This document shows positions 975-41,001 of a DNA stretch of 53,620 bases, piece by piece. Source of the stretch: a virus (Duplodnaviria; Caudoviricetes); IMG/VR virus record IMGVR_UViG_3300032323_001239, positions 1 through 53,620 of that record; one strand, given 5' to 3'. The stretch's first letter is position 1. Each line of letters starts with the position of its first letter. The notes beneath the pieces are model-generated. The model was not told the origin of the DNA. It saw nothing but the letters and a program-made list of their open reading frames with translations, and did not search any database. A program made the translations under genes and the position numbers.

Positions 975-3900
975 ATGGCAGATAATTTAATCACTACCAA
1001 CATTACCGCCAACGCAGACTTCACGAGTTTAAGAACTCAGCTGGCTGGGGTTACTGCCCAACTCGTAAAACTGCAAGAAACAACGGCGGGAACTAACGCC
1101 AAGCTTGCAAATCAAATTGCAGTAATGAATAAGTCCTTCGCAGAAACTATGCGATCAACAGGACAGTTTTCATCACACTTTGTATCGCTCACGTCAGACG
1201 TAGAAAAATTTGGTAAGAACCTAGATAGAGGAAGACTTAAGCTAGGAGAGTACTACAATGCCTGGAGTGGGCATACAAGGAGAACAAGTACATTAATTAA
1301 AGACCTTGCTAAACAGCAGGTTATGCTTGAACAAGCAATAGTTCAGCCCGTTGGTAAAAACGCACAGGGCTTGATGCAATACAACGTAATGGTTGCAAAG
1401 GGATTAGATGAAGTAAAGAATAAGACAGCTATTGCAAGACAAGAGCTAGCCATCATGAACAAGGTTATGCTAGATGGATCTAATCAGCTTATTAACTGGG
1501 GTAAGAATACTCAGTGGGCTGGTCGTCAGTTAACAGTTGGCCTAACTGTACCACTAGCAGCATTTGGCATGGCTGCACAAAAAGCTTTTAGAGAAGCAGA
1601 CGAAGAATTAGTTAGATTAACAAAGGTTTATGGAGGATTGACTGCTGTATCCGCAGCAGAATTGGCCAAGGTTAGAAAAGATGTTTCAGCAACCGCAAAA
1701 GAAATTGCTGGATCATATGGTCTTGCTTTTAAAGATACAATAGCACTAGCAGCAGATTTAGCAGCAACAGGACAAGAAGGAAACGATCTTTTAAATGCAA
1801 CAAGAGAAACATCAAGACTTTCAGTACTTGGAGAAATTGATAGACAAGAAGCAATCAAAGCAACCCTTGCTATTCAAAATGCTTTTAAAGAAAATACAGA
1901 TCAGCTTGCAGAGTCTATTAACTTTCTTAACGCAGTTGAAAACCAGACATCTACCACCCTGCAAGATTTAGTTGAAGCAATTCCAAAAGCGGGTCCAGTA
2001 GTTAAGTCTTTGGGCGGAGATGTTCAAGATCTAGCTTTATATCTTACTGCTATGAAAGAAGGCGGAGTAAACGCATCAGAAGGCGCTAACGCAATCAAGT
2101 CAGCAATGGCATCAATGATTAACCCTACAAAGGTTGCAAAAGAACTATTTTTTGGATTTGGAATTGATTTAGATAAAATTGTAACTTCTAATGCAGGTAA
2201 TTTAACACAAACTATTTTAGACCTTCAGTCAGCCCTAGATACCCTAGATCCTCTAAGTAAATCAAGAGCAATTGAACAATTGTTTGGTAAGTTTCAGTAT
2301 GCAAGACTTTCAGCACTCTTTGAAAATATAGGAAAAGAGGGATCTCAAACTGTAAGAGTTATGGAATTAATGGGAGCAACCTCAGCAGAGCTTGCAGGAA
2401 TTGCTGAACGAGAATTATCTATGATAACCGAGTCGGCTTCTGGAAAATTTAAAAGAGCCATGGCATCAGTTCAAGCAGATCTTGCAGGAGTTGGAGAGCA
2501 GTTTTTAAAAATTAGCACAAAGGTTTTAGAAGTAGTAAGCGGAATAATTAAGTTTTTCCAAGGACTTCCAGGACCAGTTAAAACATTTCTAAATGCACTT
2601 GGTGGATTGACTGCATTTGCGGGACCACTAATTATGTTAACTGGTGTTATGGCCAACTTTATTGGTTATGTTACCAAGGGAATTTTTTCTTTAAGACAAA
2701 TGGCTACAGGAGGAAAAGGGTTTAAACTACTTACTCCAGAAATATTAGCAGCAGACGCTGCTGCAAAGGGATTAAGCACAACGTTTTACAGCGACGCAGA
2801 AGCTACTGTTGTTTTAACAAACGCAGTCAATACTCTTGCTGCATCTTTTGATAGTCTTGAAATGAAAGCAAATGCAGCTAAGGTTGCGGTTCAGCCAGGA
2901 ATTGCTACAATAGCTGGCAATGTAATTGCTTCGGGAAACCCAACTGGAAGAATAGTTGATAAAAACAATCCGTTAATTGGAGACCCATACTCAAGGGATA
3001 TGTCTCATATGATCCCTGCTGGAAGTCCTCAAATGGGAACTATATTTGGAACAGTTCCAGGAGCGGGTCCAGTAAACGTTAGAGTTGGAAAAAATCCACA
3101 GGCGTATATGGACACAGATTTGCCAAAAATTCCAGGCGTTACTTCTGTCAATGGAATTTCAACAGGAATTGTTTCTCAAGAAGCAGCTAAATGGCATGCA
3201 ATGACAGCAGCAATAGCAATGCAGTCAGAGGCAGAAATTAAATTATTAAAAACAGAAGTAATGGCAACTGGAACAATTACATCAAGCCTGTCTGATTCTT
3301 ATCAAGCCCTACTTCCAGAATTTTCAGAAATCACAAGTATGGCCGCACAGGAAACAGCTTTAATTGTTAAGCAGCTACAACAAAGTAAATTAACAGCAGA
3401 TGAAGCAAGACTTAAAGTAATCCAATTAAATGCAACAGTTGAAGCAATGCTTGCTGAAACAGCTCAGAAGATTGCAGCTGGACAAGGAAGAACTGTAAAC
3501 CTAACAACAGTTCCATTAACATCTCAGCCTGTAGTAGACCCAGCTACTGGAAAATCAAATATGAAAGAAATGTTCCACAAGGGCTCTACAAAAGAAATAG
3601 CGGACAGAATTGCAAGAGCTTTAGGTGGAGTTAGAACATCTGGCGCAGGATATAATATTCAAACAACAAAGCCTAAATTTAATAAGGGCGGAATAGTTCC
3701 AGGTACAGGTAATACAGACACCTACCATACAATGGCAGAACCTGAATCATTTGTAATCAACAAGGCTTCAACAGAAAGAAATATGCCAACAATTAGCAAA
3801 CTACTTGGCGGCACACCAACGTTTAGAAATACTGGAGGAATGGTTCCAGTAGTTTTAACTCCTGGAGAAGCAGTCATCCCAGCAAAAATTGCTAAGCGTA

Positions 3901-6900
3901 ATCCAGAATTAATGTTGCAGCTAAATGGAGGCCCAGGAAACACTACTGGCATGGGAAGAAATAAGGGCGGTAAGGGTAAAGCTACAAAAGCAGAACTAGA
4001 TGATGCAGCCAAAAAACTTCTTGCTAAAGCCTTAAAGGTAGATCAAAGAATGTTTGATTCGCCAAATTGGGAACAAGAAGTTAGACTAAGACACATAATG
4101 CATGATGCTGGTGTATATAATAGCTATGCAGGTTTTGACGAACAAACAGCAATCAATATGGCAATAGAAGATTACGATACAGCCTGGGCAAACTCTATTA
4201 AAAAAGACGGGCATCTAGACATGAAAAAGTGGATGCAAGAAAGAATGCGTATTGCAAGATCAAGAGATTCACAAGTAAGAAGAATGATAAGGCTAGAGAT
4301 TGATTCAAAGGAAGGCCCTAGAGCTGGATTTACTCAATATAAAGCTTTCCAGAAGTACCGTGGTCAAAGCGGTGAAAGATTTAGACCAACAAGTAATTTG
4401 ATTGGTGAATTTAGAGCAAGAGCTAACGAATTTGGCGGAATTGGTTTGTTTGATAGTACATCAGACAAGCTATTTAAAAATGGCATAGAAGGAACTGTAT
4501 CAGAGCATACAGCAAGAAGATCATTATGGAGAGACACAAGAGGCAAAGTGTTTAGTCTTGCTGGAAATCTTGGAATGGCTATGCTTGGCGAAAAGGAAAT
4601 TAATCAGCTTACTAACGAGTTAAACAGAGGCACTCGTGGTGTTGTTCCAGACATGCTCACAATGACAAATAAGGGCGTTGATCTTAAAAGAGCATGGAAT
4701 GCTAAAAAAGGAATTGGTTCAAATAAAGCAGAAGCTATTGCATTCTTAAAGAGAGCAATGCAAGGGTTGGTAGATAGAAGATCGGGATTTAGACCAAACA
4801 ACACAATGTTTGCTCATGCAGGATTCAATGAGGGTGGACAGATCCCAGGTCAATTTGCACAAAAACTATTTGGCGGAGGAAGAGCAATGTTCCTTGGAAT
4901 GCCTAGAACTATTAAGCAGGTAGAAGCTCAAAGAGCAGCAAGAGCATCTATGGAAAAAGCAAGCCAAGCAGTTAAGGATTCTAGATTTAGCAAAACTCCA
5001 GTAACTGATTACGATGAGCTTATAGAGCCAACCTCTGGAAGAAGTTTTCCAGTTTCTGGAATTGGTGGAGTATACAATAAAAACGGAGAAAAAGTTTTTG
5101 TTAAGCCAGTCCTCGATGAAAAGGCAGCGCTTGCTGAAATAAGAGCAACTCAAATCGCTCGTGAAGTTCATGGCTTGCAAACACCTGATCAAAGAATTGT
5201 AGTTATGAGGGACCCAACTGATCCAAAGGGTTCCAGAACATTGCTAGCATTAGAATCTAAATATAATCCTGCTATTGCAAATCAAGACGGCAAGTTTAAT
5301 GAAGATCAATATTTTAGACAGCTAGTTGCATCTGCATTACGTGGAGACAAGGATTTAGGAAGAGGTAATCTTTCAGGAAATATTCTTGCAGATGTTGGTA
5401 CAGCTGGAGTATTTGCAACAGCCTCTGGCCCAAGAGATTACTCTGCAACAATTCCTTCATTTAAGCATCAAGCAATGGTTAATTTAATGGGAGTAAAGGG
5501 AAGTGGAGCAAAGAAGTTTTTTGCCGAATCTACCGTAGATATTCCGATGGGCATGACTGCTGATCAATATAATGATCGCATGCTTGACGAGATTAATAGG
5601 GCCTTGCCTAAGTTAAAACAAACTATTTCAAGGTTTCCTGATTTAACTTCAGAAGAAAAGTCTATTTATAATGCAATGATTGCAAGACTAGAAGATGCAA
5701 GAAGGAAAACATATGGAGACCTTCATGGAATACACTCATCATTAAAAATAGCGCCAGAAAAGACTATGACTCCAGCTGCTATTGCTAAAATGATTGCTGC
5801 GGATGAACTTAAGCGCAGACAGCGTGGTCACTCTGTTAGCCTTTCAGACAATAGTTTTAAAACTGAAGCAAATGGATTTAACATCGGAGGAATGATTGGA
5901 AATGTTCTTAAGGGTAGAGCAATGCACAGAATTGGTGCAGGCTTTGGTCCAACAGGTGCTCCTAAGCCAAGCATGTACGAGTCAGCTCCATGGGGAGTTA
6001 ATTCATTATCAATTGAAATGGCAGAAAAGTTATTTGCAAGTAGTGGATTAAGAAAAAATACTCAAAAGCATTTGTACGATAAGTTTGCTGCCGCATTAGC
6101 AAAAGAAAAGCCTTACGGTTATGTTAAAGATGCAAAGGGATCTTTGAAGAATGCACTTGAGCCACATATTTTAGACTCAGTAATAAGATCAGCAGCTTCC
6201 GACCTTATTTCTGATAGAAATGTATCTAAGCAGTTGTCTCCTATAGACAGAGACATATTAAAGAAAAAGTATTTAAACTGGGATTCTAAAAAAGATACTC
6301 CATTGACAGAGTCTTTAAAGCAAATTATATTTGGATTAGAAAAAAGAGAAATGGGCGGACCAGTTAATGCTGGACAGCCATACATTGTAGGAGAAAAGGG
6401 TCCAGAAATATTTGTTCCTAAAAACGCAGGAGGCATTGTTCCAAACGGATACATGGATGGCGGTAGCGTTAAAAATGGATACATGAAGGGCGGCATGGTT
6501 GCTATGGCTGCAGCTTCGTTAGTTCCAATGGTTCTTTCTAGTAAAATTGCTAATCCTTTGCTTCAAACAATAATGCAGACACTTTCATTTATCATACCTC
6601 AAATGATGATGACAGCAATGATGCAGACAAAGGTTGAAGGCAGCCAAGGGCGAGTTGGAAGATTAATGTCTAAGATTCCAGACAGCGCAAAAACTCCTAT
6701 GTTTTCTACAGCACGAGGAACAGACGGAAAAATTTTAAGCGCTTATGGAGCAGGTCTTCAAAATGCTGCTAAAAACGGAAACTTATTGACAAGAACACTT
6801 GCAAGAGTTGGAATGGGTATTACAAGATTAAATGTTGGACTTGCCGTAGCAACTGGAGCTTTTATTGCTATTAATAAAAGAATAAGAGATCACAATGAGC

Positions 6901-9206
6901 ATTTAAGAATTGGCGTTACTCAATACGGACTAACAGAAGAGGCTGCTAAAAAAGCAGGACTTAAGTTTACTGATTACAATTCAAAGCTTGCAGATACTGT
7001 AAAAAGCATAGAAGCAATAAGAGAAAGAAATCAATTCTTGTTTGAAAGCTTGCAGGATGCTGGCTTGCCTATATCCATGACAATTGAAGAGTATAAGAAG
7101 CTTAAAAAAGAAGTTAAGGAAGTCTATACAGACCAAATTAAACTAATTAATCAGTCTAAAGAAAGTGAATTGCCACAGGTAGCAATAGATATTAAGACTG
7201 CGCTAATGGCTGCTGGAATGTCAGCAGATGACGCAAGTAAAAAAATATTTGCAATGTTTAAGCTTTCTGAAAAGGGAGAAAAGGCTGGTGCATTTACTGT
7301 AGGTAATCGTGCATTTAGAAACATTAGGACAGGACAAGATGCAGCAGTAGCTGCAATAAATACTTACACAACCGCTTCAGATGGACGTGAAAAAGCACAG
7401 GCAGTCAATACAGGTCTAACAGCTATCGACGCTGGAATTATAGATATGATTGAACAAAGTAAAAAAGCTGCAAGAGCAGACAAGACAGGCAACACACAAG
7501 TATTAACTCAGTATCAAGCACAGGAAGCAATGCTTAAGAAACTAAATCAGCTAGAGTCTTCTAAGGCTGTCTTAACCGCAAAAACTAGAGCAGAAATGAT
7601 TAAGCAAAATCCAGAACTTAAAAAAATTATCAACCCATTAGATACAGTTGTTAGCTTATTTGAAAAAATGAATCTTGCAGCAAAAGGATTTACTGGAGAC
7701 CTTTCAAAGTTGGGTGCAGAAGCAGTAAGCACACTTTCTAGAATTGCTGATTCAGTTTCTGAATCAACCATTACGGCAAATAAGGTTGGAATACTAGAAA
7801 AAAATTATGCCCTTCTAGGAAGATTAACGGCTCAGCAAAAGATTCTTGCAGCTGCAGCTAGAGGACAGAGTGCTCAGCAACAAATAAATACTAGAGAGCA
7901 ACTAAAGGGTTTACAAAAACAAATAGATGCAAATAATAAACTTGCAGAGGCAAGACTAAAAGCCCTAGATGCAGCAAAGCAAGAGGGAGACATTGCAAGA
8001 CAAATCGCTAAAGCGCAAGCTGCATACGAGGCTGCTTTGGCAACAGGCAATACCGCTGCTGCACAACAGGCAAGCCTAGACATTCAGGGTCTGCAATCAG
8101 ATCAACAGTATAACGCTCAAAAGAAAGCAATTGAAGATGCCCTTAAGCTAGCTAATGCTCCTCTCGAGGCTAAGATAAAGTTAATTAATGATGGCCAGCA
8201 AAAGCTTAGCGACAACGCAAGCATTGCTGCAGAATCATTAAGTAAGTTAAATGAAAAAATTGCAAAAGAAAAACAAAAAATTGATGATGTTAATAAAGCA
8301 ATGACTACTCTAGCAATTAATGCAATTGCCGCAGGAATGACTCTTAAAGAATATCTAGGAACAGATGCTGGAAGGCAAGATTCTGCGGCTGTAGTGGGAA
8401 CTGTAAATACAGCAAGACCAGATACGGTTGTTAAGCCTCCATTGCAGTTAAGAAGATCTCCAAGGGTATCTACTCCAAGCGTAACAGACCAAGCTGCAGG
8501 ATTTATGGGTGGCGTAACGGGAGCTGTTGAAAAGGGGTTAGCCGCAAAAGGAATTACAGTGTCCGCAATGACTGGAGACATTATTATCAATGGCAAAAAA
8601 ATGGATGTAGGTCAGTCAAAAGCTACTGCTAAAATTGGATTTGTTCCTAAAACTCTTGGGGCAGAAGCTGGAGCCATGGCAGGAACTACTTTAGTTTCAC
8701 CAGTTGCATTAACGGCAGCAGGTGCTACACAGGTATCTGATGGAAAGCGAGGCTCTACCTGGGTTGGAGTTGAGTTCCTAGATAAAAATGGAAAAAAATG
8801 GAAAGTAACTTCTGATGCAGGAAGGACAGGGCAACTTAATGTTCAAGCAGTAAAGGCTGGATACGGTACCATGAAACTTAATCCAAAGGTTCCAACCATT
8901 GTTGGAGACCGTGGCCCAGAAATGGCATTTGGTGGAATGATTATTCCTAACATGGCTAAGGTTCCATATGCCTCTCCTAGATATGACGTTAAGCAAGCAG
9001 AAAAAATGTTTGAGCCAATGAGGAATTCAAGCGGAGGGCAGGGAGTAATAAACTATACTCAAGTAATTAATGCTTCTCCAGGAATGAATGAGGATCAATT
9101 AATAAGTAAAGCAAAGGTTGCAGCCTACGAATTCTTGCAGGCTAATATAAAAACTAATGCTAAAATGGTAGGAAACACAATGAATGTAGGTATTAAAAAG
9201 ACATGA
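975..9206 (+). CDS. Tape measure protein (TP901-like core) with internal cargo domains including a kinase-like fold
   Basis: 2743 aa, Ala-rich and helical, downstream of the chaperones. Contains TMP core motifs (ESINFLNAVENQT, AIEQLFGK) and GGPV..G..YIVGEKGPEIFVP-type motifs. Confidence 0.93.
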   Translation: MADNLITTNITANADFTSLRTQLAGVTAQLVKLQETTAGTNAKLANQIAVMNKSFAETMRSTGQFSSHFVSLTSDVEKFGKNLDRGRLKLGEYYNAWSGHTRRTSTLIKDLAKQQVMLEQAIVQPVGKNAQGLMQYNVMVAKGLDEVKNKTAIARQELAIMNKVMLDGSNQLINWGKNTQWAGRQLTVGLTVPLAAFGMAAQKAFREADEELVRLTKVYGGLTAVSAAELAKVRKDVSATAKEIAGSYGLAFKDTIALAADLAATGQEGNDLLNATRETSRLSVLGEIDRQEAIKATLAIQNAFKENTDQLAESINFLNAVENQTSTTLQDLVEAIPKAGPVVKSLGGDVQDLALYLTAMKEGGVNASEGANAIKSAMASMINPTKVAKELFFGFGIDLDKIVTSNAGNLTQTILDLQSALDTLDPLSKSRAIEQLFGKFQYARLSALFENIGKEGSQTVRVMELMGATSAELAGIAERELSMITESASGKFKRAMASVQADLAGVGEQFLKISTKVLEVVSGIIKFFQGLPGPVKTFLNALGGLTAFAGPLIMLTGVMANFIGYVTKGIFSLRQMATGGKGFKLLTPEILAADAAAKGLSTTFYSDAEATVVLTNAVNTLAASFDSLEMKANAAKVAVQPGIATIAGNVIASGNPTGRIVDKNNPLIGDPYSRDMSHMIPAGSPQMGTIFGTVPGAGPVNVRVGKNPQAYMDTDLPKIPGVTSVNGISTGIVSQEAAKWHAMTAAIAMQSEAEIKLLKTEVMATGTITSSLSDSYQALLPEFSEITSMAAQETALIVKQLQQSKLTADEARLKVIQLNATVEAMLAETAQKIAAGQGRTVNLTTVPLTSQPVVDPATGKSNMKEMFHKGSTKEIADRIARALGGVRTSGAGYNIQTTKPKFNKGGIVPGTGNTDTYHTMAEPESFVINKASTERNMPTISKLLGGTPTFRNTGGMVPVVLTPGEAVIPAKIAKRNPELMLQLNGGPGNTTGMGRNKGGKGKATKAELDDAAKKLLAKALKVDQRMFDSPNWEQEVRLRHIMHDAGVYNSYAGFDEQTAINMAIEDYDTAWANSIKKDGHLDMKKWMQERMRIARSRDSQVRRMIRLEIDSKEGPRAGFTQYKAFQKYRGQSGERFRPTSNLIGEFRARANEFGGIGLFDSTSDKLFKNGIEGTVSEHTARRSLWRDTRGKVFSLAGNLGMAMLGEKEINQLTNELNRGTRGVVPDMLTMTNKGVDLKRAWNAKKGIGSNKAEAIAFLKRAMQGLVDRRSGFRPNNTMFAHAGFNEGGQIPGQFAQKLFGGGRAMFLGMPRTIKQVEAQRAARASMEKASQAVKDSRFSKTPVTDYDELIEPTSGRSFPVSGIGGVYNKNGEKVFVKPVLDEKAALAEIRATQIAREVHGLQTPDQRIVVMRDPTDPKGSRTLLALESKYNPAIANQDGKFNEDQYFRQLVASALRGDKDLGRGNLSGNILADVGTAGVFATASGPRDYSATIPSFKHQAMVNLMGVKGSGAKKFFAESTVDIPMGMTADQYNDRMLDEINRALPKLKQTISRFPDLTSEEKSIYNAMIARLEDARRKTYGDLHGIHSSLKIAPEKTMTPAAIAKMIAADELKRRQRGHSVSLSDNSFKTEANGFNIGGMIGNVLKGRAMHRIGAGFGPTGAPKPSMYESAPWGVNSLSIEMAEKLFASSGLRKNTQKHLYDKFAAALAKEKPYGYVKDAKGSLKNALEPHILDSVIRSAASDLISDRNVSKQLSPIDRDILKKKYLNWDSKKDTPLTESLKQIIFGLEKREMGGPVNAGQPYIVGEKGPEIFVPKNAGGIVPNGYMDGGSVKNGYMKGGMVAMAAASLVPMVLSSKIANPLLQTIMQTLSFIIPQMMMTAMMQTKVEGSQGRVGRLMSKIPDSAKTPMFSTARGTDGKILSAYGAGLQNAAKNGNLLTRTLARVGMGITRLNVGLAVATGAFIAINKRIRDHNEHLRIGVTQYGLTEEAAKKAGLKFTDYNSKLADTVKSIEAIRERNQFLFESLQDAGLPISMTIEEYKKLKKEVKEVYTDQIKLINQSKESELPQVAIDIKTALMAAGMSADDASKKIFAMFKLSEKGEKAGAFTVGNRAFRNIRTGQDAAVAAINTYTTASDGREKAQAVNTGLTAIDAGIIDMIEQSKKAARADKTGNTQVLTQYQAQEAMLKKLNQLESSKAVLTAKTRAEMIKQNPELKKIINPLDTVVSLFEKMNLAAKGFTGDLSKLGAEAVSTLSRIADSVSESTITANKVGILEKNYALLGRLTAQQKILAAAARGQSAQQQINTREQLKGLQKQIDANNKLAEARLKALDAAKQEGDIARQIAKAQAAYEAALATGNTAAAQQASLDIQGLQSDQQYNAQKKAIEDALKLANAPLEAKIKLINDGQQKLSDNASIAAESLSKLNEKIAKEKQKIDDVNKAMTTLAINAIAAGMTLKEYLGTDAGRQDSAAVVGTVNTARPDTVVKPPLQLRRSPRVSTPSVTDQAAGFMGGVTGAVEKGLAAKGITVSAMTGDIIINGKKMDVGQSKATAKIGFVPKTLGAEAGAMAGTTLVSPVALTAAGATQVSDGKRGSTWVGVEFLDKNGKKWKVTSDAGRTGQLNVQAVKAGYGTMKLNPKVPTIVGDRGPEMAFGGMIIPNMAKVPYASPRYDVKQAEKMFEPMRNSSGGQGVINYTQVINASPGMNEDQLISKAKVAAYEFLQANIKTNAKMVGNTMNVGIKKT

Positions 9207-36305: not shown

Positions 36306-38534
36306 ATGCCGTTTAACATTACATCAACAGGCGGTTCTGGCGACGGAGCTCCAGGTCCTAGAGGACTACAGGGTTTACCAGGAGCCGACGCTCTTTGGAA
36401 TTATGTTGGAGCGTATAGTGGTGGTGCATCATATGCAGTTGGAGATATTGTAACATACGACGGACAACTTTGGTACCGTGCTAATGCAAACGGTGGAAAT
36501 GTTGGAGACACGCCTTCACAAGGATTTATCTGGAACCTGCTTGCCGCAAAAGGGGAAGATGGAGTGGATGGCTCTGGCGGACTTGTATATCTAGGAAACT
36601 ATGTTTTAGGTAATGGTTACGTTGCAAACCTTGCAATTGTAAAAGGAAGCGACAATAATTTATATATTGCAAAATCAAGTGGCGGTTTAGCAGATCCAGT
36701 TGGTAACACTGCAGAGTGGGATATTTTTTCCAACAATGCTGGCGGTACCGCAGATCTTGGAGACTTCCAATTTACTGCAGCAACCGCTAATGTTAATAAC
36801 TCACAAAATTTAAGATTAGAATCTAGAAGATGGGATGGAACACAAGCTTCTGCTTTAACTCTTGACCCAGGTGATCCTTCTGCAAGTCTGAGTGCGACTA
36901 ATATGCAGGGTCAGTCCTTTAGCGAGCTATGGACTCAGGCCACTTGGAGCGGAGAAACGGTTGATATTTTAGATACCCCAGAGATTATTAATTTCTTAAA
37001 TGAAATAACTTCATACGCAAGTGTACGACGTGTTATTATCAACGAAAACGCACCGATTAATGTTACTAGTTTCGGTTGGACTACAACAAATGTTCAGTTT
37101 GGAGTTGCTCTGCCAGCTGAAGAACTAACACCAATAACAGACATTACATTTATATATGAATTTACATCTCAAGTACGTCTTGATTATGATAATGGTGCCA
37201 TCGATATTTCTGGAAACGGAATGAATATCAACCTTACAACTACACAGTCAAGAGACATTAATCTTACCTCTGCCGACGATATTAACATAATCTCCTCCGA
37301 CGATGCTACTCTCAGAGCATCTGGAGATGACTTAAATCTTCATGCAGGGGACGACATTCGTTTTATTTCATCATGGGATAATGCCGATCATTCATGGACA
37401 ATGGATTCGGAAGGAAGACTACAACTTCCAGGTAACGGTTACATTGAAAACCCTAAAGACTCATCTGGGGATGGATATGAAAATGATACTATAAAGATAG
37501 TTCCAGATAGTCTTTTGGAGTCAGATCAATATTTAATAATTGATCCTACAGCTCCAAACCACATTCATATTCGTGCTGGTGGTGTTCAAGATTACTCTAA
37601 TGCAGAACTTATCCTTGGTGGCGAAAGAGCAGGAGTGCATGTATCTGATCCAGCTGGGGATGTATGGGTTCAGACAAAGAAAGAAGACTACCACTGGTCT
37701 TGGCAAAATGTAAACCCTAATGATGGAACTACATACATTACAAGCTCATCTATGTCAGAACCAGATATTGGTGACTTTACAGTTCAGAATGGCATTAAGT
37801 ATACAATCACTAGTGTATCTAGAGATGAACCAAACGGAAACACTGCATACATGGCAACAGGAAGCAATGGAGAACTTCTAAACTTTGTTTCTCTTGCATA
37901 TTATACATTTACTAGAGACAATGGTAATTACGCTTGGAGATTTGAGGCTATTGATGATGCCCCAGCTCTTGTTCTTCCGCCAGAAGAGCCAGTAATTGTA
38001 AACATGGCAGTACCAGGAGATATTACTCTTAGTGCGTATAACGGAATTAAAATTGCAGCTTCATCAGGATTTGGAATTGAATTCCCTGATGAAACAATTC
38101 AAACAACAGCTTACATTCCAGGTGGAGATGCTCCAGTAGAAACACTATTTACAGTAAATGGTGGAACTACTGCAGCACAACCAACATTTAATGGGACTCC
38201 ACTATTTAGCGGAAGCTATGTTAGAACTGGTCAGTTAGTACACTTTCAAATACAGGTAGATATGGATAACATATCTGACTTCGGTACTGGACAATACTAT
38301 GTTGATCTACCATTTGCTGCGAAATATAACTATACCTTTAAAGATGGTAGTCTAATCGATGCTTCATCAAACGATAGGCACAATATTGGTGGATATGTTA
38401 CTGCAAACACAGAAAGAATCTTTTTAACATTTACTGACTCTTCTGGTCACGATGCTATTTTTGATTATAACAGTCCAGTAGTATTAAATTCTGCAGATAG
38501 TTTTTATATTTCTGGAACATATATAGCTAGCTAA
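36306..38534 (+). CDS. Fibre-like virion protein (short collagen repeat, carbohydrate-binding-like modules, beta-helical repeats)
   Basis: GAPGPRGLQGLPG; YSGGASYAVGDIVTYDGQLWY; INLTSADDINIISSDDATLRASGDDLNLHAGDDI; C-terminal GSYVRTGQLVHFQI..YYVDLPF fibre-tip pattern. Confidence 0.7.
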   Translation: MPFNITSTGGSGDGAPGPRGLQGLPGADALWNYVGAYSGGASYAVGDIVTYDGQLWYRANANGGNVGDTPSQGFIWNLLAAKGEDGVDGSGGLVYLGNYVLGNGYVANLAIVKGSDNNLYIAKSSGGLADPVGNTAEWDIFSNNAGGTADLGDFQFTAATANVNNSQNLRLESRRWDGTQASALTLDPGDPSASLSATNMQGQSFSELWTQATWSGETVDILDTPEIINFLNEITSYASVRRVIINENAPINVTSFGWTTTNVQFGVALPAEELTPITDITFIYEFTSQVRLDYDNGAIDISGNGMNINLTTTQSRDINLTSADDINIISSDDATLRASGDDLNLHAGDDIRFISSWDNADHSWTMDSEGRLQLPGNGYIENPKDSSGDGYENDTIKIVPDSLLESDQYLIIDPTAPNHIHIRAGGVQDYSNAELILGGERAGVHVSDPAGDVWVQTKKEDYHWSWQNVNPNDGTTYITSSSMSEPDIGDFTVQNGIKYTITSVSRDEPNGNTAYMATGSNGELLNFVSLAYYTFTRDNGNYAWRFEAIDDAPALVLPPEEPVIVNMAVPGDITLSAYNGIKIAASSGFGIEFPDETIQTTAYIPGGDAPVETLFTVNGGTTAAQPTFNGTPLFSGSYVRTGQLVHFQIQVDMDNISDFGTGQYYVDLPFAAKYNYTFKDGSLIDASSNDRHNIGGYVTANTERIFLTFTDSSGHDAIFDYNSPVVLNSADSFYISGTYIAS

Positions 38535-38607
38535 GTTTAATTAAACTAATATATCTGGTATAATTAATAAGTAAGCAAACATATTGCATTACTTAGGAGA
38601 TACCTAG

Positions 38608-41001
38608 TTGACTAGAAAGTTACAGTATACCTTAACCAGCCTTTTTATAATCGGCTGGCTCTTTCTTTTTGGGCCAAGTAATGCCCATGCTGAGGAAGTT
38701 ACAGTTCAAGTAACACCAGCAAATCCATCTTCAGATACAGCCACAGCAACCACTCCTATTACAGTTGAGATAGTTGCAGACAAAGTAGAAGCGGCAGCAG
38801 ATACACTACAAGCAGCAGCCCAAACACAAGGCAATGCGATCATATCTACAATTCAGGCAAATGTGCCAAACACAGATACTCAGACTGCTACCCAAATTGC
38901 TACAACTCAAGAGCCAATTAAGGCAGCAGTTGAATCAGCAACAGTCAAGGTACAAGAGGCTAACACTGCAATACAATCTGCTGAGACAGCAGTCACAGTT
39001 GCAGCAACAGCACAAGCAGCAGTTGAATCACAAACTGCAGTAGTTGCCACAGCAACAACAAATTTAAATAATGCTCAAACAAATTTGAATACAGTAACAC
39101 AACAAGTTGAATCTCAAACTGCTGTAGTTGCTACAGATACCACAAACCTTGCTACAGCCCAGGCTGCTGCAGATGCTTCAGCCGTAGAAACTACAACTAA
39201 TGGAATTGAAGTAACAACATACGCATCACCTGGTGGACAGCAGCCTCCGCTTCCAGCAGAAAATGCAACACCACTTTCAACCACAACAGTTCCTTACATT
39301 GCTCACCAATTTGGGAGCGGACAGGTATTTAATTCTGGGCGGGTAGACAATGTAATTGTAAAATTTGAAGGAACTATTACTGTTCCAGAAGAAGCAGTAA
39401 CGGTAAAATATGCAATCCATTCTGACGATGGGGCAAAGATGTATGTAGATGGACAGCTTGCAATTAATGAGTGGATTGACAAGGGCGGGGGTTGGAGTCA
39501 ATACTCTCCAACCTATAATACAACTACAGACAAACAACAGGACTTTACTATTTGGTACTATGAAAATGGTGGAGGGTCGCAAGTTATACTTGGCTGGCTA
39601 ATAATGAGACAAGATGGAAGTGGATATTTTACTACTCCAAATCAAACAGCATTTGCAACTACAATAGTAACAAAAGATCCAGTATTAGTTGCTGCAGTTG
39701 CTACTGCACAGACAACTCTTAATAATGACACTGCAGTGCTTAATACTCTTACTACACAGAAGACTGCAGCAGAAGCAGTAGTTGTAGATAAAACAGAGGT
39801 AAAAGCGGTTGAAGTTGCCACATTAAATCAGCTTACAGAAACTGCTACAGTAGCAGTTCAAGCAGCAGATACACTTGCTAATACAGCAACAACAAAAGTA
39901 AATGAAGCAGTAACTGCAATGACAAATGCAGCACAGGTTACAGTTAATTATTATGCAGAGCAACAAGCAGCGGCACAAGCCGCAGCAAATGCCGCAGCAG
40001 AGGCTGCAGCAGCTCAAGCAGCACAACAAGCAGCAGCAGCGGAAGCTGCAGCACAACAAGCAGCTGCACAAGCAGCAGCCGCAGAAGCAGCAGCCAAAGC
40101 AGCAGCGGAAGCTGCAGCAAAAGCTGAAGCAGAAGCCAAAGCAGCAGCGGAAGCTGCAGCAAAAGCTGAAGCAGACCGTGTAGCCGCAGAGGAAGCCGCT
40201 GCTAAAGCAGAGGCTGATCGTGTAGCAGCAGAAGAAGCAGCAGCCAAAGCAGAACAAGAAGCTAAAGAAAAAGCTGAAGCAGATGCAAAAGCAGAAGCTG
40301 ATAGATTAGAGGCAGAGGCTGAAGCGGCAGCGCAAGCAGAGGCAGATGCTAAGGCTGAAGCAGAAGCAAAGGCTCAAGAAGAAGCAAATGCTAAAGCAGA
40401 AGCGGAAGCTAAAGCACAAGAAGCGGCGGATGCAAAAGCAGAAGCTGAAGCAAAAGCTGCAGAATTAAAAGCGGCAAAGGCAGAAGAAGAAGCATTAAAG
40501 AAAGCAGCAGAAGAAGGCAAACTAACTGAAGAGCAAAAAGAAGTTGTTGTAGAAAAATTAGTAGAGAACCTTGCACCAGGAGAGTCTATTTCAGCAGCAG
40601 AAGTTAAAGCAGCAGGAGTATCTTATTCTGATTTACCACCAGCAACACCAGTAGATGTTCGTACTGATGAAAATGGAAATGCAGTTGTAATCACTGCAGC
40701 AGTTGCCGCTCAAGTAGAATTGTTGCAGAACCCAGGAGCATTGGTAGAAGAATTATTTACAAATCCAGCAGCGGCCCTGGCTGCATTTGGAAGCATAGGC
40801 GCAGATATGTCAGATGAAGAAAGAGAAGAAGCAACAGATATGGTTGTTGCTACAGTTGTAGCAGCAGGTGCAGCAATTAACGCAGCAGCAGTTGCCACAG
40901 GAGGAGCCACAGGAGGCAGCACAGGAGGCGGAGGAAGTTCTGGTGGGGGTGGCGCTTCAGGTGCTAATTCACCAGGTTCACGAGGAGGAAGAAAATGGTA
41001 A
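38608..41001 (+). CDS. Secreted/anchored protein with PA14 domain, Ala/Glu coiled-coil stalk and C-terminal hydrophobic anchor
   Basis: TTG start with SD AGGAG; signal peptide ending AHA-; PA14 motifs SDDGAKMYVDG and WYYENGGG; AEAAAK repeats. Confidence 0.8.
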   Translation: MTRKLQYTLTSLFIIGWLFLFGPSNAHAEEVTVQVTPANPSSDTATATTPITVEIVADKVEAAADTLQAAAQTQGNAIISTIQANVPNTDTQTATQIATTQEPIKAAVESATVKVQEANTAIQSAETAVTVAATAQAAVESQTAVVATATTNLNNAQTNLNTVTQQVESQTAVVATDTTNLATAQAAADASAVETTTNGIEVTTYASPGGQQPPLPAENATPLSTTTVPYIAHQFGSGQVFNSGRVDNVIVKFEGTITVPEEAVTVKYAIHSDDGAKMYVDGQLAINEWIDKGGGWSQYSPTYNTTTDKQQDFTIWYYENGGGSQVILGWLIMRQDGSGYFTTPNQTAFATTIVTKDPVLVAAVATAQTTLNNDTAVLNTLTTQKTAAEAVVVDKTEVKAVEVATLNQLTETATVAVQAADTLANTATTKVNEAVTAMTNAAQVTVNYYAEQQAAAQAAANAAAEAAAAQAAQQAAAAEAAAQQAAAQAAAAEAAAKAAAEAAAKAEAEAKAAAEAAAKAEADRVAAEEAAAKAEADRVAAEEAAAKAEQEAKEKAEADAKAEADRLEAEAEAAAQAEADAKAEAEAKAQEEANAKAEAEAKAQEAADAKAEAEAKAAELKAAKAEEEALKKAAEEGKLTEEQKEVVVEKLVENLAPGESISAAEVKAAGVSYSDLPPATPVDVRTDENGNAVVITAAVAAQVELLQNPGALVEELFTNPAAALAAFGSIGADMSDEEREEATDMVVATVVAAGAAINAAAVATGGATGGSTGGGGSSGGGGASGANSPGSRGGRKW
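39958..40515 (+). repeat. Low-complexity coding tandem repeats (AEAAAK / AKAEAE)
   Basis: Repeated gcagcagcggaagctgcagcaaaagctgaagcaga units, including a 42-nt period near 40099/40141. Confidence 0.85.

Follow-up and report, generated by a model that had tools for sequence, protein, structure and literature searches.

Our analysis concerns a kinase-like domain carried inside the tape measure protein (TMP) of a virus represented by IMG/VR record IMGVR_UViG_3300032323_001239, the whole of which (53,620 bases, estimated completeness about 50%) is the window examined here. Nearly all long open reading frames (ORFs) of the window lie on the plus strand, and among them is the TMP gene, a single ORF of 2743 amino acids (aa) at nucleotide (nt) positions 975..9206. 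Residues 239-438 of its product match Pfam PhageMin_Tail (PF10145; E 1e-28, 101 bits against a cut-off of 33.2), the protein also matches TIGR01760 tape_meas_TP901 (E 6e-29, 101.2 bits against a cut-off of 28.8), and several PHROG families of TMPs match within aa 15-850, the best being phrog_10030 (E 1e-120, aa 38-848). Two small ORFs upstream of the gene have PHROG matches, the genes downstream match PHROG families of minor tail and tail proteins, and farther downstream one gene is for a DnaB-like helicase and another for a large DNA polymerase. The gene thus has tail chaperone-like ORFs on one side and minor tail genes on the other, with both its hidden Markov model (HMM) matches and its position being those of a TMP, and the N-terminal family matches together with the tail and replication gene neighbours identify it as the giant TMP of a large siphophage-like virus. 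Contigs related to this record reach 105-120 kb, and TMPs of the clade measure 2600-4400 aa. The TMP core (aa 1-650, nt 975-2924) shares 33-34% identity with its counterparts in Streptomyces and Gordonia phages, whose records are listed at 120-134 kb; despite this likeness, the G+C content of the window is only about 38%.

A HipA/PI3K-like kinase domain had been proposed in this protein at nt 4980-5760 from the DNA sequence and its translations (hereafter the original prediction), and the domain does lie there, but the folded unit is larger and includes helices past the MIARL motif at which the proposal had ended. As modelled, and as supported by an AlphaFold2 model, structure matches and homologues, the kinase-like domain spans aa 1325-1612 (nt 4947..5810, plus strand, as for the other features of the TMP given below), and its conserved, folded core, judged from conservation and the model, covers roughly aa 1335-1600 (nt ~4977-5775). 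Each motif named in the proposal was confirmed in the translation at its residue and nucleotide. The long Gly-rich loop between beta1 and beta2, SGRSFPVSGIGGVY (aa 1353-1367, nt 5031..5075), falls between model strands E24-28 and E41-45 and includes SGIGGVY (aa 1361-1367, nt 5055-5075). The beta3 lysine, K1377 of VFVKP (nt 5103..5105), is on model strand E48-55, and the helix-C glutamate, E1388 of AALAEIR (nt 5136..5138), is on model helix H58-75. The catalytic loop, D1458-K-D1460-L-G-R-G-N1465 (nt 5346..5369), recognised by its conservation and contained in GDKDLGRGN (aa 1457-1465, nt 5343-5369), follows model helix H119-132, and is itself followed by ILADVG (aa 1470-1475), which holds the metal-binding DxG, the equivalent of DFG (D1473-V-G1475, nt 5391..5399, with D1473 at nt 5391). 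The helical C-lobe occupies aa 1496-1611 (nt 5460..5807; model helices H172-179, 191-195, 198-201, 205-228, 235-251, 257-264 and 276-287); MIARLED lies at aa 1568-1574, and the lobe runs two to three helices beyond MIARL, where W/Y1580 and H1587 are conserved. On the opposite strand, a 108-aa ORF (4866-5192, minus) overlaps the N-lobe part of this region; it is most likely not a gene, because the plus frame is strongly conserved.

Homologues of the domain are numerous and their catalytic residues are nearly invariant. An exhaustive HMMER search with aa 1320-1640 against 1.84 billion cluster representatives returned 163 representatives at E<=1e-3, with 140 of them at E<=1e-30, and we aligned the domain of the present TMP with 127 full-length domain segments from 150 listed representatives to give a 128-row alignment. 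Eight residues are identical in 128/128 rows (G1355, G1365, K1377, E1388, P1404, Q1449, N1465 and D1473), and others are near-invariant: D1460 and S1357 in 127 rows, L1461 in 126, G1475 in 125, Y1367 in 124 and D1458 in 122. The C-lobe has conserved features of its own in this alignment, namely N1503, a GVKG-GAKK-F motif, Y1565 and W/Y1580. When 276 domain-bearing proteins were examined, the set K-E-D-N-D was intact in 254 of the 255 homologues that cover all five sites; the one homologue that departs from it is P0113, in which Val replaces Asp; this record is truncated and comes from a 3.2-kb contig, and its full-length relative in the same 90% cluster (90% identity) has Asp. Such a pattern is far beyond chance. 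The domain is also under purifying selection, with a ratio of nonsynonymous to synonymous substitution rates (dN/dS) of 0.07-0.22 in the 11 loci tested of 31 related viral loci, these ratios being rough as dS is near 1.

This conservation bears on a reading that we hold to be very unlikely, in which the kinase fold serves another chemistry, such as AMPylation or SelO-type nucleotide transfer, or is a purely structural module that sets tail length. Enzymes with a kinase fold and other chemistries do exist, and the His and Lys of the HipA catalytic loop are absent here; the canonical phosphotransfer residues, however, are invariant and in canonical positions, and a spacer would not maintain a dN/dS of 0.07-0.22 or all five catalytic residues down to 28% identity. 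Because the whole apparatus for ATP phosphotransfer is kept (the Gly-rich loop, Lys1377 and Glu1388, Asp1460 and Asn1465, and Asp1473), the domain is most likely an active phosphotransferase and not a spacer, as predicted from sequence and model. The option of a pseudokinase, which the original prediction had left standing, appears unlikely given the invariant catalytic set.

We built a predicted structure of the domain with AlphaFold2 from a 45-row alignment, A1, made up of the present TMP and 44 of 47 diverse segments that are 28-62% identical to it. The model has a pLDDT of 97.1 and a pTM of 0.92. Its elements run from beta1 through the long Gly-rich loop to beta2, beta3 (K1377), helix C (E1388), beta4 and beta5, then through a short helix and a long helix to the catalytic loop (D1460..N1465), D1473-x-G and a helical lobe with seven helices after the DxG, which is the canonical order of secondary structure in kinases. 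In a Foldseek search of the PDB with this model, four matches had E<=1e-3, all of them chains of Helicobacter pylori CtkA (best E 2.3e-5, probability 1.0); Shewanella HipA came next (E 2.5e-3), followed by classical protein kinases and amicoumacin kinase, and all 49 among the matches listed are kinases. Ranking by VIA-align placed CtkA first at 11.1 (201 residues, 4.2 Å), followed by MavQ (10.4), PI4KIIalpha (10.2), Shewanella HipA (9.5), LepB (9.1), E. coli HipA and HipT (9.0 each), PI4KIIIbeta and Vps34 (8.6), the class I PI3Ks (about 8), YabT (6.7) and Bud32 (6.5). The nearest solved structures thus come from exactly the families to which the original prediction had likened the domain, CtkA, HipA and the PI3/PI4 kinases, and the Foldseek comparison with HipA and CtkA recovers a kinase-like fold. 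With Lys, Glu, Asp, Asn and Asp falling in the right order on the right structural elements of the model, the two-lobed predicted fold supports assignment to the protein-kinase-like (PKL) superfamily, in the branch of CtkA, HipA and the PI3/PI4 kinases.

The same ranking has the lipid kinases MavQ, PI4KIIalpha and LepB tied with protein kinases within about one Z unit, and the fold therefore does not give the class of substrate. We considered an enzyme of the same fold and activity that acts on a lipid of the membrane or on a precursor of the envelope. Such an enzyme could change the inner membrane at the entry site in the manner of MavQ, LepB or PI4KIIalpha, and so aid channel formation, DNA entry or the exclusion of other phages. 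The nearest ESM-Atlas clusters, which serve as leads only, include LepB_N and PI3_PI4_kinase (0.91-0.92) beside HipA_2 (0.91), the domain lies between hydrophobic segments of a protein of a kind known to enter the membrane, and its C-lobe carries the conserved, basic GVKG-GAKK motif. Against these points, both aligners place a protein kinase at the top, the sole profile alignment obtained, which is non-significant, is in register with HipA, and phosphoinositides are rare in bacteria. We regard a lipid or envelope substrate as unlikely, and slightly favour a protein Ser/Thr substrate over a lipid by analogy with CtkA and HipA.

At the level of sequence, the domain falls in no described family. 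Searches of Pfam, PHROG, NCBIfam and PDB sequences retrieved no kinase family, whether the query was the domain sequence alone or the 45-row profile. At E<=10, none of the 45 members matches HipA_C (PF07804) and none matches PI3_PI4_kinase (PF00454), and neither the DRHxxN/DFG pattern of the latter nor its DRH motif is present; PF07804 is not matched anywhere in the record, whereas control genomes do match it. HipA_2 (PF20613) is matched by one member of 45, weakly (E 0.016), and not by the TMP studied here. For a direct comparison we used a HipA alignment of ten sequences, consisting of E. coli HipA, YjjJ and eight plasmid homologues at 20-44% identity, in which S150, G153, Q155, K157, D309, H311, N314 and D332 are invariant. 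Neither the HipA P-loop, S150-x-A-G-A-Q-x-K157, nor the HipA catalytic loop, D309-x-H311-x-K-N314, is kept here; where the HipA loops read S-x-A-G-A-Q-x-K and DGHAKN, those of the present domain read GRSFPVSGIGG and DLGRGN. The original prediction had noted that the usual His of DxHxxN is Gly in this protein, and the comparison bears this out (D1460-L-G1462-R-G-N1465 against the invariant D309, H311 and N314).

Alignment of A1 with the ten-sequence HipA alignment, a shallow profile, by hhalign was non-significant (probability 0.3, E 0.2, 95 aligned columns), and against E. coli HipA alone the probability was 0.2. In the non-significant alignment with the ten sequences, K1377, E1388, D1460 and N1465 fall on HipA K181, E203, D309 and N314, and a 'GLxxP' turn after helix C falls on HipA GLNVP. 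This register agrees with the structural result and does not establish membership in HipA. No Pfam match, to a HipA N-terminal domain or to any other, flanks the kinase domain, and no HipB/HipS partner gene accompanies it, the gene being a TMP inside a tail module. Since the domain has neither the P-loop nor the catalytic His and Lys of HipA, and comes without a HipA N-terminal domain or an antitoxin partner, we file it as a new sequence family of the kinase-like superfamily, CtkA/HipA-like in predicted fold. This kinase-like family is unannotated in Pfam, NCBIfam and PHROGs, and its carrier, a TMP, is unreported as such; a literature search of article text, which did not extend to supplements, found no report of a kinase within a TMP.

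H. pylori CtkA (JHP0940; PDB 3akk/3akl/3akj) is likewise a compact kinase, with a length of about 300 aa and no additional domain at its N-terminus. It shares only 14-15% identity and no HMM-level similarity with the present domain, and it is a free protein, whereas the domain here is built into a tail protein of a phage. HipA and HipT (Pfam HipA_C; PDB 3tpb, 4pu5, 7ab3, 8ezr) are alike in the order of K, E, the 'GLxxP' turn and D-x4-N, and differ in the features listed above as missing here. Relative to the PI3/PI4 lipid kinases and to Legionella MavQ and LepB, the present domain has no PF00454 match, no DRH motif and no accessory helical or C2 domains.

Of the best 150 of the 163 representatives, 134 are at least 1000 aa long, the longest being 4468 aa. 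A word-indexed search limited to proteins of 1508-4801 aa found 814 clusters at 90% identity that carry the domain; 109 of the best 120 of these have PF10145 (PhageMin_Tail), and the other 11, which are shorter or apparently truncated, comprise 10 without any Pfam domain and one with OmpA only. When the 150 representatives are compared along the TMP, just two parts are widely common to them, the N-terminal core at aa 1-600 (about 110 representatives) and the kinase region at aa 1300-1600 (about 145), and all other TMP regions are common to no more than 34.

We also looked for the domain outside TMPs. A profile search with A1 among proteins of 146-545 aa gave 12 matches, all of them partial (27-83% of the query), and 10 of the 12 lie on contigs of about 0.7-5 kb. 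Of seven short representatives looked up, six are truncated genes on contigs of 1.4-3.2 kb, and P0075, on a 7.5-kb contig, has TMP linker motifs and an aberrant C-terminal tail and is apparently a frameshifted piece of a TMP. A pattern scan of genome contigs yielded 149 pattern matches, none of which was confirmed. No convincing stand-alone form was found in these searches, and the domain, as far as sequences go, occurs only inside giant TMPs. We rejected the idea that TMPs took up a kinase family which also exists in free form, the short forms in these searches being partial or TMP-derived pieces.

A TMP fills the lumen of the tail and is the first protein to leave the virion at infection. 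Because a conserved catalytic domain is found only in this first-leaving virion protein, we propose that the enzyme is made in advance and delivered at infection. On this basis, TMP residues ~1335-1600 probably form an active, ATP-dependent phosphotransferase that is carried in the tail, ejected ahead of the DNA and acts on the host. The enzyme would be carried in the tail in an at least partly unfolded state and would be ejected with the TMP ahead of the DNA. Refolding would take place at the inner membrane or inside it, with access to ATP, and phosphorylation of a host target would then precede all phage gene expression. The original prediction had already suggested delivery of this kind, with host translation or defence proteins as possible targets.

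An alternative is an active kinase that is never delivered and works in the producing cell, either late in infection or in tail assembly, for instance through an autophosphorylation that controls the folding of the TMP, the release of its chaperones or its processing. The TMP is a late protein, HipA is known to autophosphorylate, and a near-invariant serine (S1357) lies in the Gly-rich loop of the domain. The passages on CtkA in PMC7366825 describe autophosphorylation of that kinase as well, and Benler et al., in the relevant portion of their text, argued for late action of a 'Gratiaviridae' HipA-family kinase encoded by a late gene (PMC8008677). Nevertheless, a late soluble enzyme would need no fusion to a TMP, yet no convincing stand-alone form was found, and we consider action confined to the producing cell to be quite improbable, less so only than the other-chemistry or spacer reading discussed above.

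For delivery to the host as we propose it, the placement of the domain relative to the membrane is important. We called hydrophobic segments by the Kyte-Doolittle scale with a 19-residue window at >=1.5. One segment resembling a membrane span, at aa 537-566 (nt 2583..2672), lies upstream of the presumed cargo region and has a counterpart at the same place in eight of the nine relatives examined, and a second, at aa 1840-1859 (nt 6492..6551), lies downstream of it, so that the kinase-containing region, aa ~570-1840, is flanked by the two. Since a kinase needs ATP, this cargo loop should face the cytoplasm.

Several points weigh against the proposed delivery. The periplasm is without ATP, and the model consequently needs a cytoplasmic location. 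A folded domain of about 30 kDa, present in several TMP copies, cannot fit into the lumen of a siphophage tail, and it would therefore have to travel extended or unfolded and refold. In five relatives, one or two hydrophobic segments separate the kinase from an OmpA domain, which leaves the topology ambiguous. The pairing of K1377 with E1388 and the clustering of the active site are read from the model solely through the order of residues on secondary-structure elements, and the catalytic loop (D-L-G-R-G-N) is without the His and Lys typical of HipA. Finally, a tblastn search of the domain against 50,697 phage records returned no match, and no cultured relative.

The five relatives, out of 276, are those in which an OmpA-family peptidoglycan-binding domain lies about 1100 aa downstream of the kinase (P0225, P0263, P0266, P0007 and P0006; confirmed by Pfam for P0225 and P0006). 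These OmpA-like domains suggest hosts with a periplasm.

Other enzymes carried by TMPs provide a partial precedent for a kinase cargo. Peptidoglycan hydrolase motifs are embedded in the TMPs of mycobacteriophage TM4 and of T5 (Pb2), in which the TMP is likewise the carrier of an enzyme acting on the target cell at entry. To our knowledge, the TMP cargoes described so far work outside the cytoplasm, on the cell wall, and do not depend on ATP, whereas the kinase cargo proposed here would have to reach the cytoplasmic side. In a contractile injection system, Sle1 proteins, which are related to TMPs, bear functional domains that can be exchanged (PMC13277306), and there too a TMP-related scaffold acts as an effector carrier, as we propose for the present TMP. 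As for CtkA, the corresponding parts of PMC7366825 place it on the mobile element ICEHptfs3 and describe it as translocated out of its producer.

Among viral proteins, the best matches of the model in the BFVD structure library are large multi-domain phage proteins, followed by Ser/Thr kinases of giant viruses. Its top rows are a mycobacteriophage 'ADP-ribosyltransferase' (1340 aa), a 'PI3/4-kinase catalytic domain' protein, a 'portal' protein and a 'head morphogenesis' fusion. Because these are large fusion proteins of virion type, the kinase fold, as predicted, appears to recur as cargo in other virion-associated phage proteins.

Phage kinases with proposed host targets have been described previously in other protein contexts. 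Iyer et al. (2017), taking the T7 kinase as the model, predicted that kinase domains of phage polyvalent proteins are delivered along with the DNA; they describe these kinases as without the whole C-terminal subdomain, and the text of the article contains no mention of 'tape measure' (PMC5512222). By comparison with that paper's description, the domain studied here keeps its helical C-lobe, with seven helices, and does not share the loss of the subdomain (PMC5512222). The survey passages of Benler et al. (2021) name the T7, 933W and CotH-type kinases as the known phage kinases and add the 'Gratiaviridae' HipA-family kinase, which is encoded by a separate late gene (PMC8008677). As presented in those parts of the two sources, T7 gp0.7, 933W Stk and the CotH-type, 'Gratiaviridae' and polyvalent kinases are phage-encoded and proposed to modify host proteins (PMC5512222, PMC8008677). 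Each of them is either a protein in its own right or a part of a MuF-type or polyvalent protein, whereas the domain described here is part of a TMP. If it is an ATP-dependent kinase, it would raise the number of phage kinase types to five and be the first that is built into the tail. A part of the TMP would then reach the cytoplasm as a pre-made effector, which bears on the final location of the ejected TMP. With 814 clusters and clear catalytic residues, the family would make this proposal directly testable by mutation once a member has been expressed or such a phage brought into culture.

Directly N-terminal of the kinase domain lies a polymorphic cassette of about 290 aa (aa 1001-1290, nt 3975..4844). 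We compared the TMP with 88 collinear close relatives by pairwise BLAST in 50-aa bins, and found an identity of 0.75-0.93 in most bins over aa 1-1000 and 1300-1800 and of only 0.22-0.39 over aa 1001-1300. The 84 cassettes that could be extracted fall into 10 clusters at 60% identity. Some of these clusters are remote homologues of the present cassette, with 23-30% identity over most of its length and, for those aligning over at least 290 residues, E values from ~1e-7 down to ~5e-18, and other clusters have only the flanks in common with it. In an alignment of 13 cassettes over 311 aa (TMP aa 990-1300), the polar residues R50, D55, H189, N221 and D237, with positions counted along that segment, are invariant, forming the series R, H-D, E-H, N and D. 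The predicted structure of the cassette is mostly helical (pLDDT 77.7); it gave no usable match in the ESM Atlas, and Foldseek against the PDB gave nothing below E 0.4. A weak row for a Fic domain (probability 0.13) was rejected, the spacing from the conserved His to GN being a misfit to the Fic motif.

The polymorphism of the cassette hints at a function in an arms race. We tentatively suggest, as a doubtful though somewhat better prospect than the lipid or envelope substrate considered above, that giant siphophage TMPs are modular effector injectors resembling polymorphic toxin systems. The warhead would be the HipA/PI-kinase-like kinase together with the adjacent cassette of ~290 aa, which is swapped among at least 10 variants between TMPs that are otherwise 80-90% identical. 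The cassette might serve to direct or control the kinase, or act as a further effector, with defence or translation proteins that vary between hosts as the targets. If so, host takeover or anti-defence by phosphorylation would start before the first phage gene is transcribed.

The borders of the TMP modules are marked by short motifs. Nine G-G-[IMQPS]-[VIPM] motifs, of the type Gly-Gly-x-[VI]-Pro and often preceded by F/Y-N-x, delimit the modules, and short Gly-Gly motifs or blocks lie at module borders at nt 3681-3704, 3828-3851, 4824-4850, 5874-5903, 6345-6500 and 8922-8948. A GEKGPE...GG block at aa 1806-1842, before the second hydrophobic segment, repeats the C-terminal GDRGPE...GG block at aa 2644-2658. 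From these sequence patterns, it looks as if the TMP were built of two TMP-like units, or as if the motifs were sites of recombination or processing.

Elsewhere in the window, a 742-aa ORF (36306-38534, plus strand) has no PHROG match at E<=1e-5, and a stretch inside 36306-41001 weakly resembles, at the DNA level (65-72%), genes annotated as hypothetical in Phocaeicola and Streptococcus phages.

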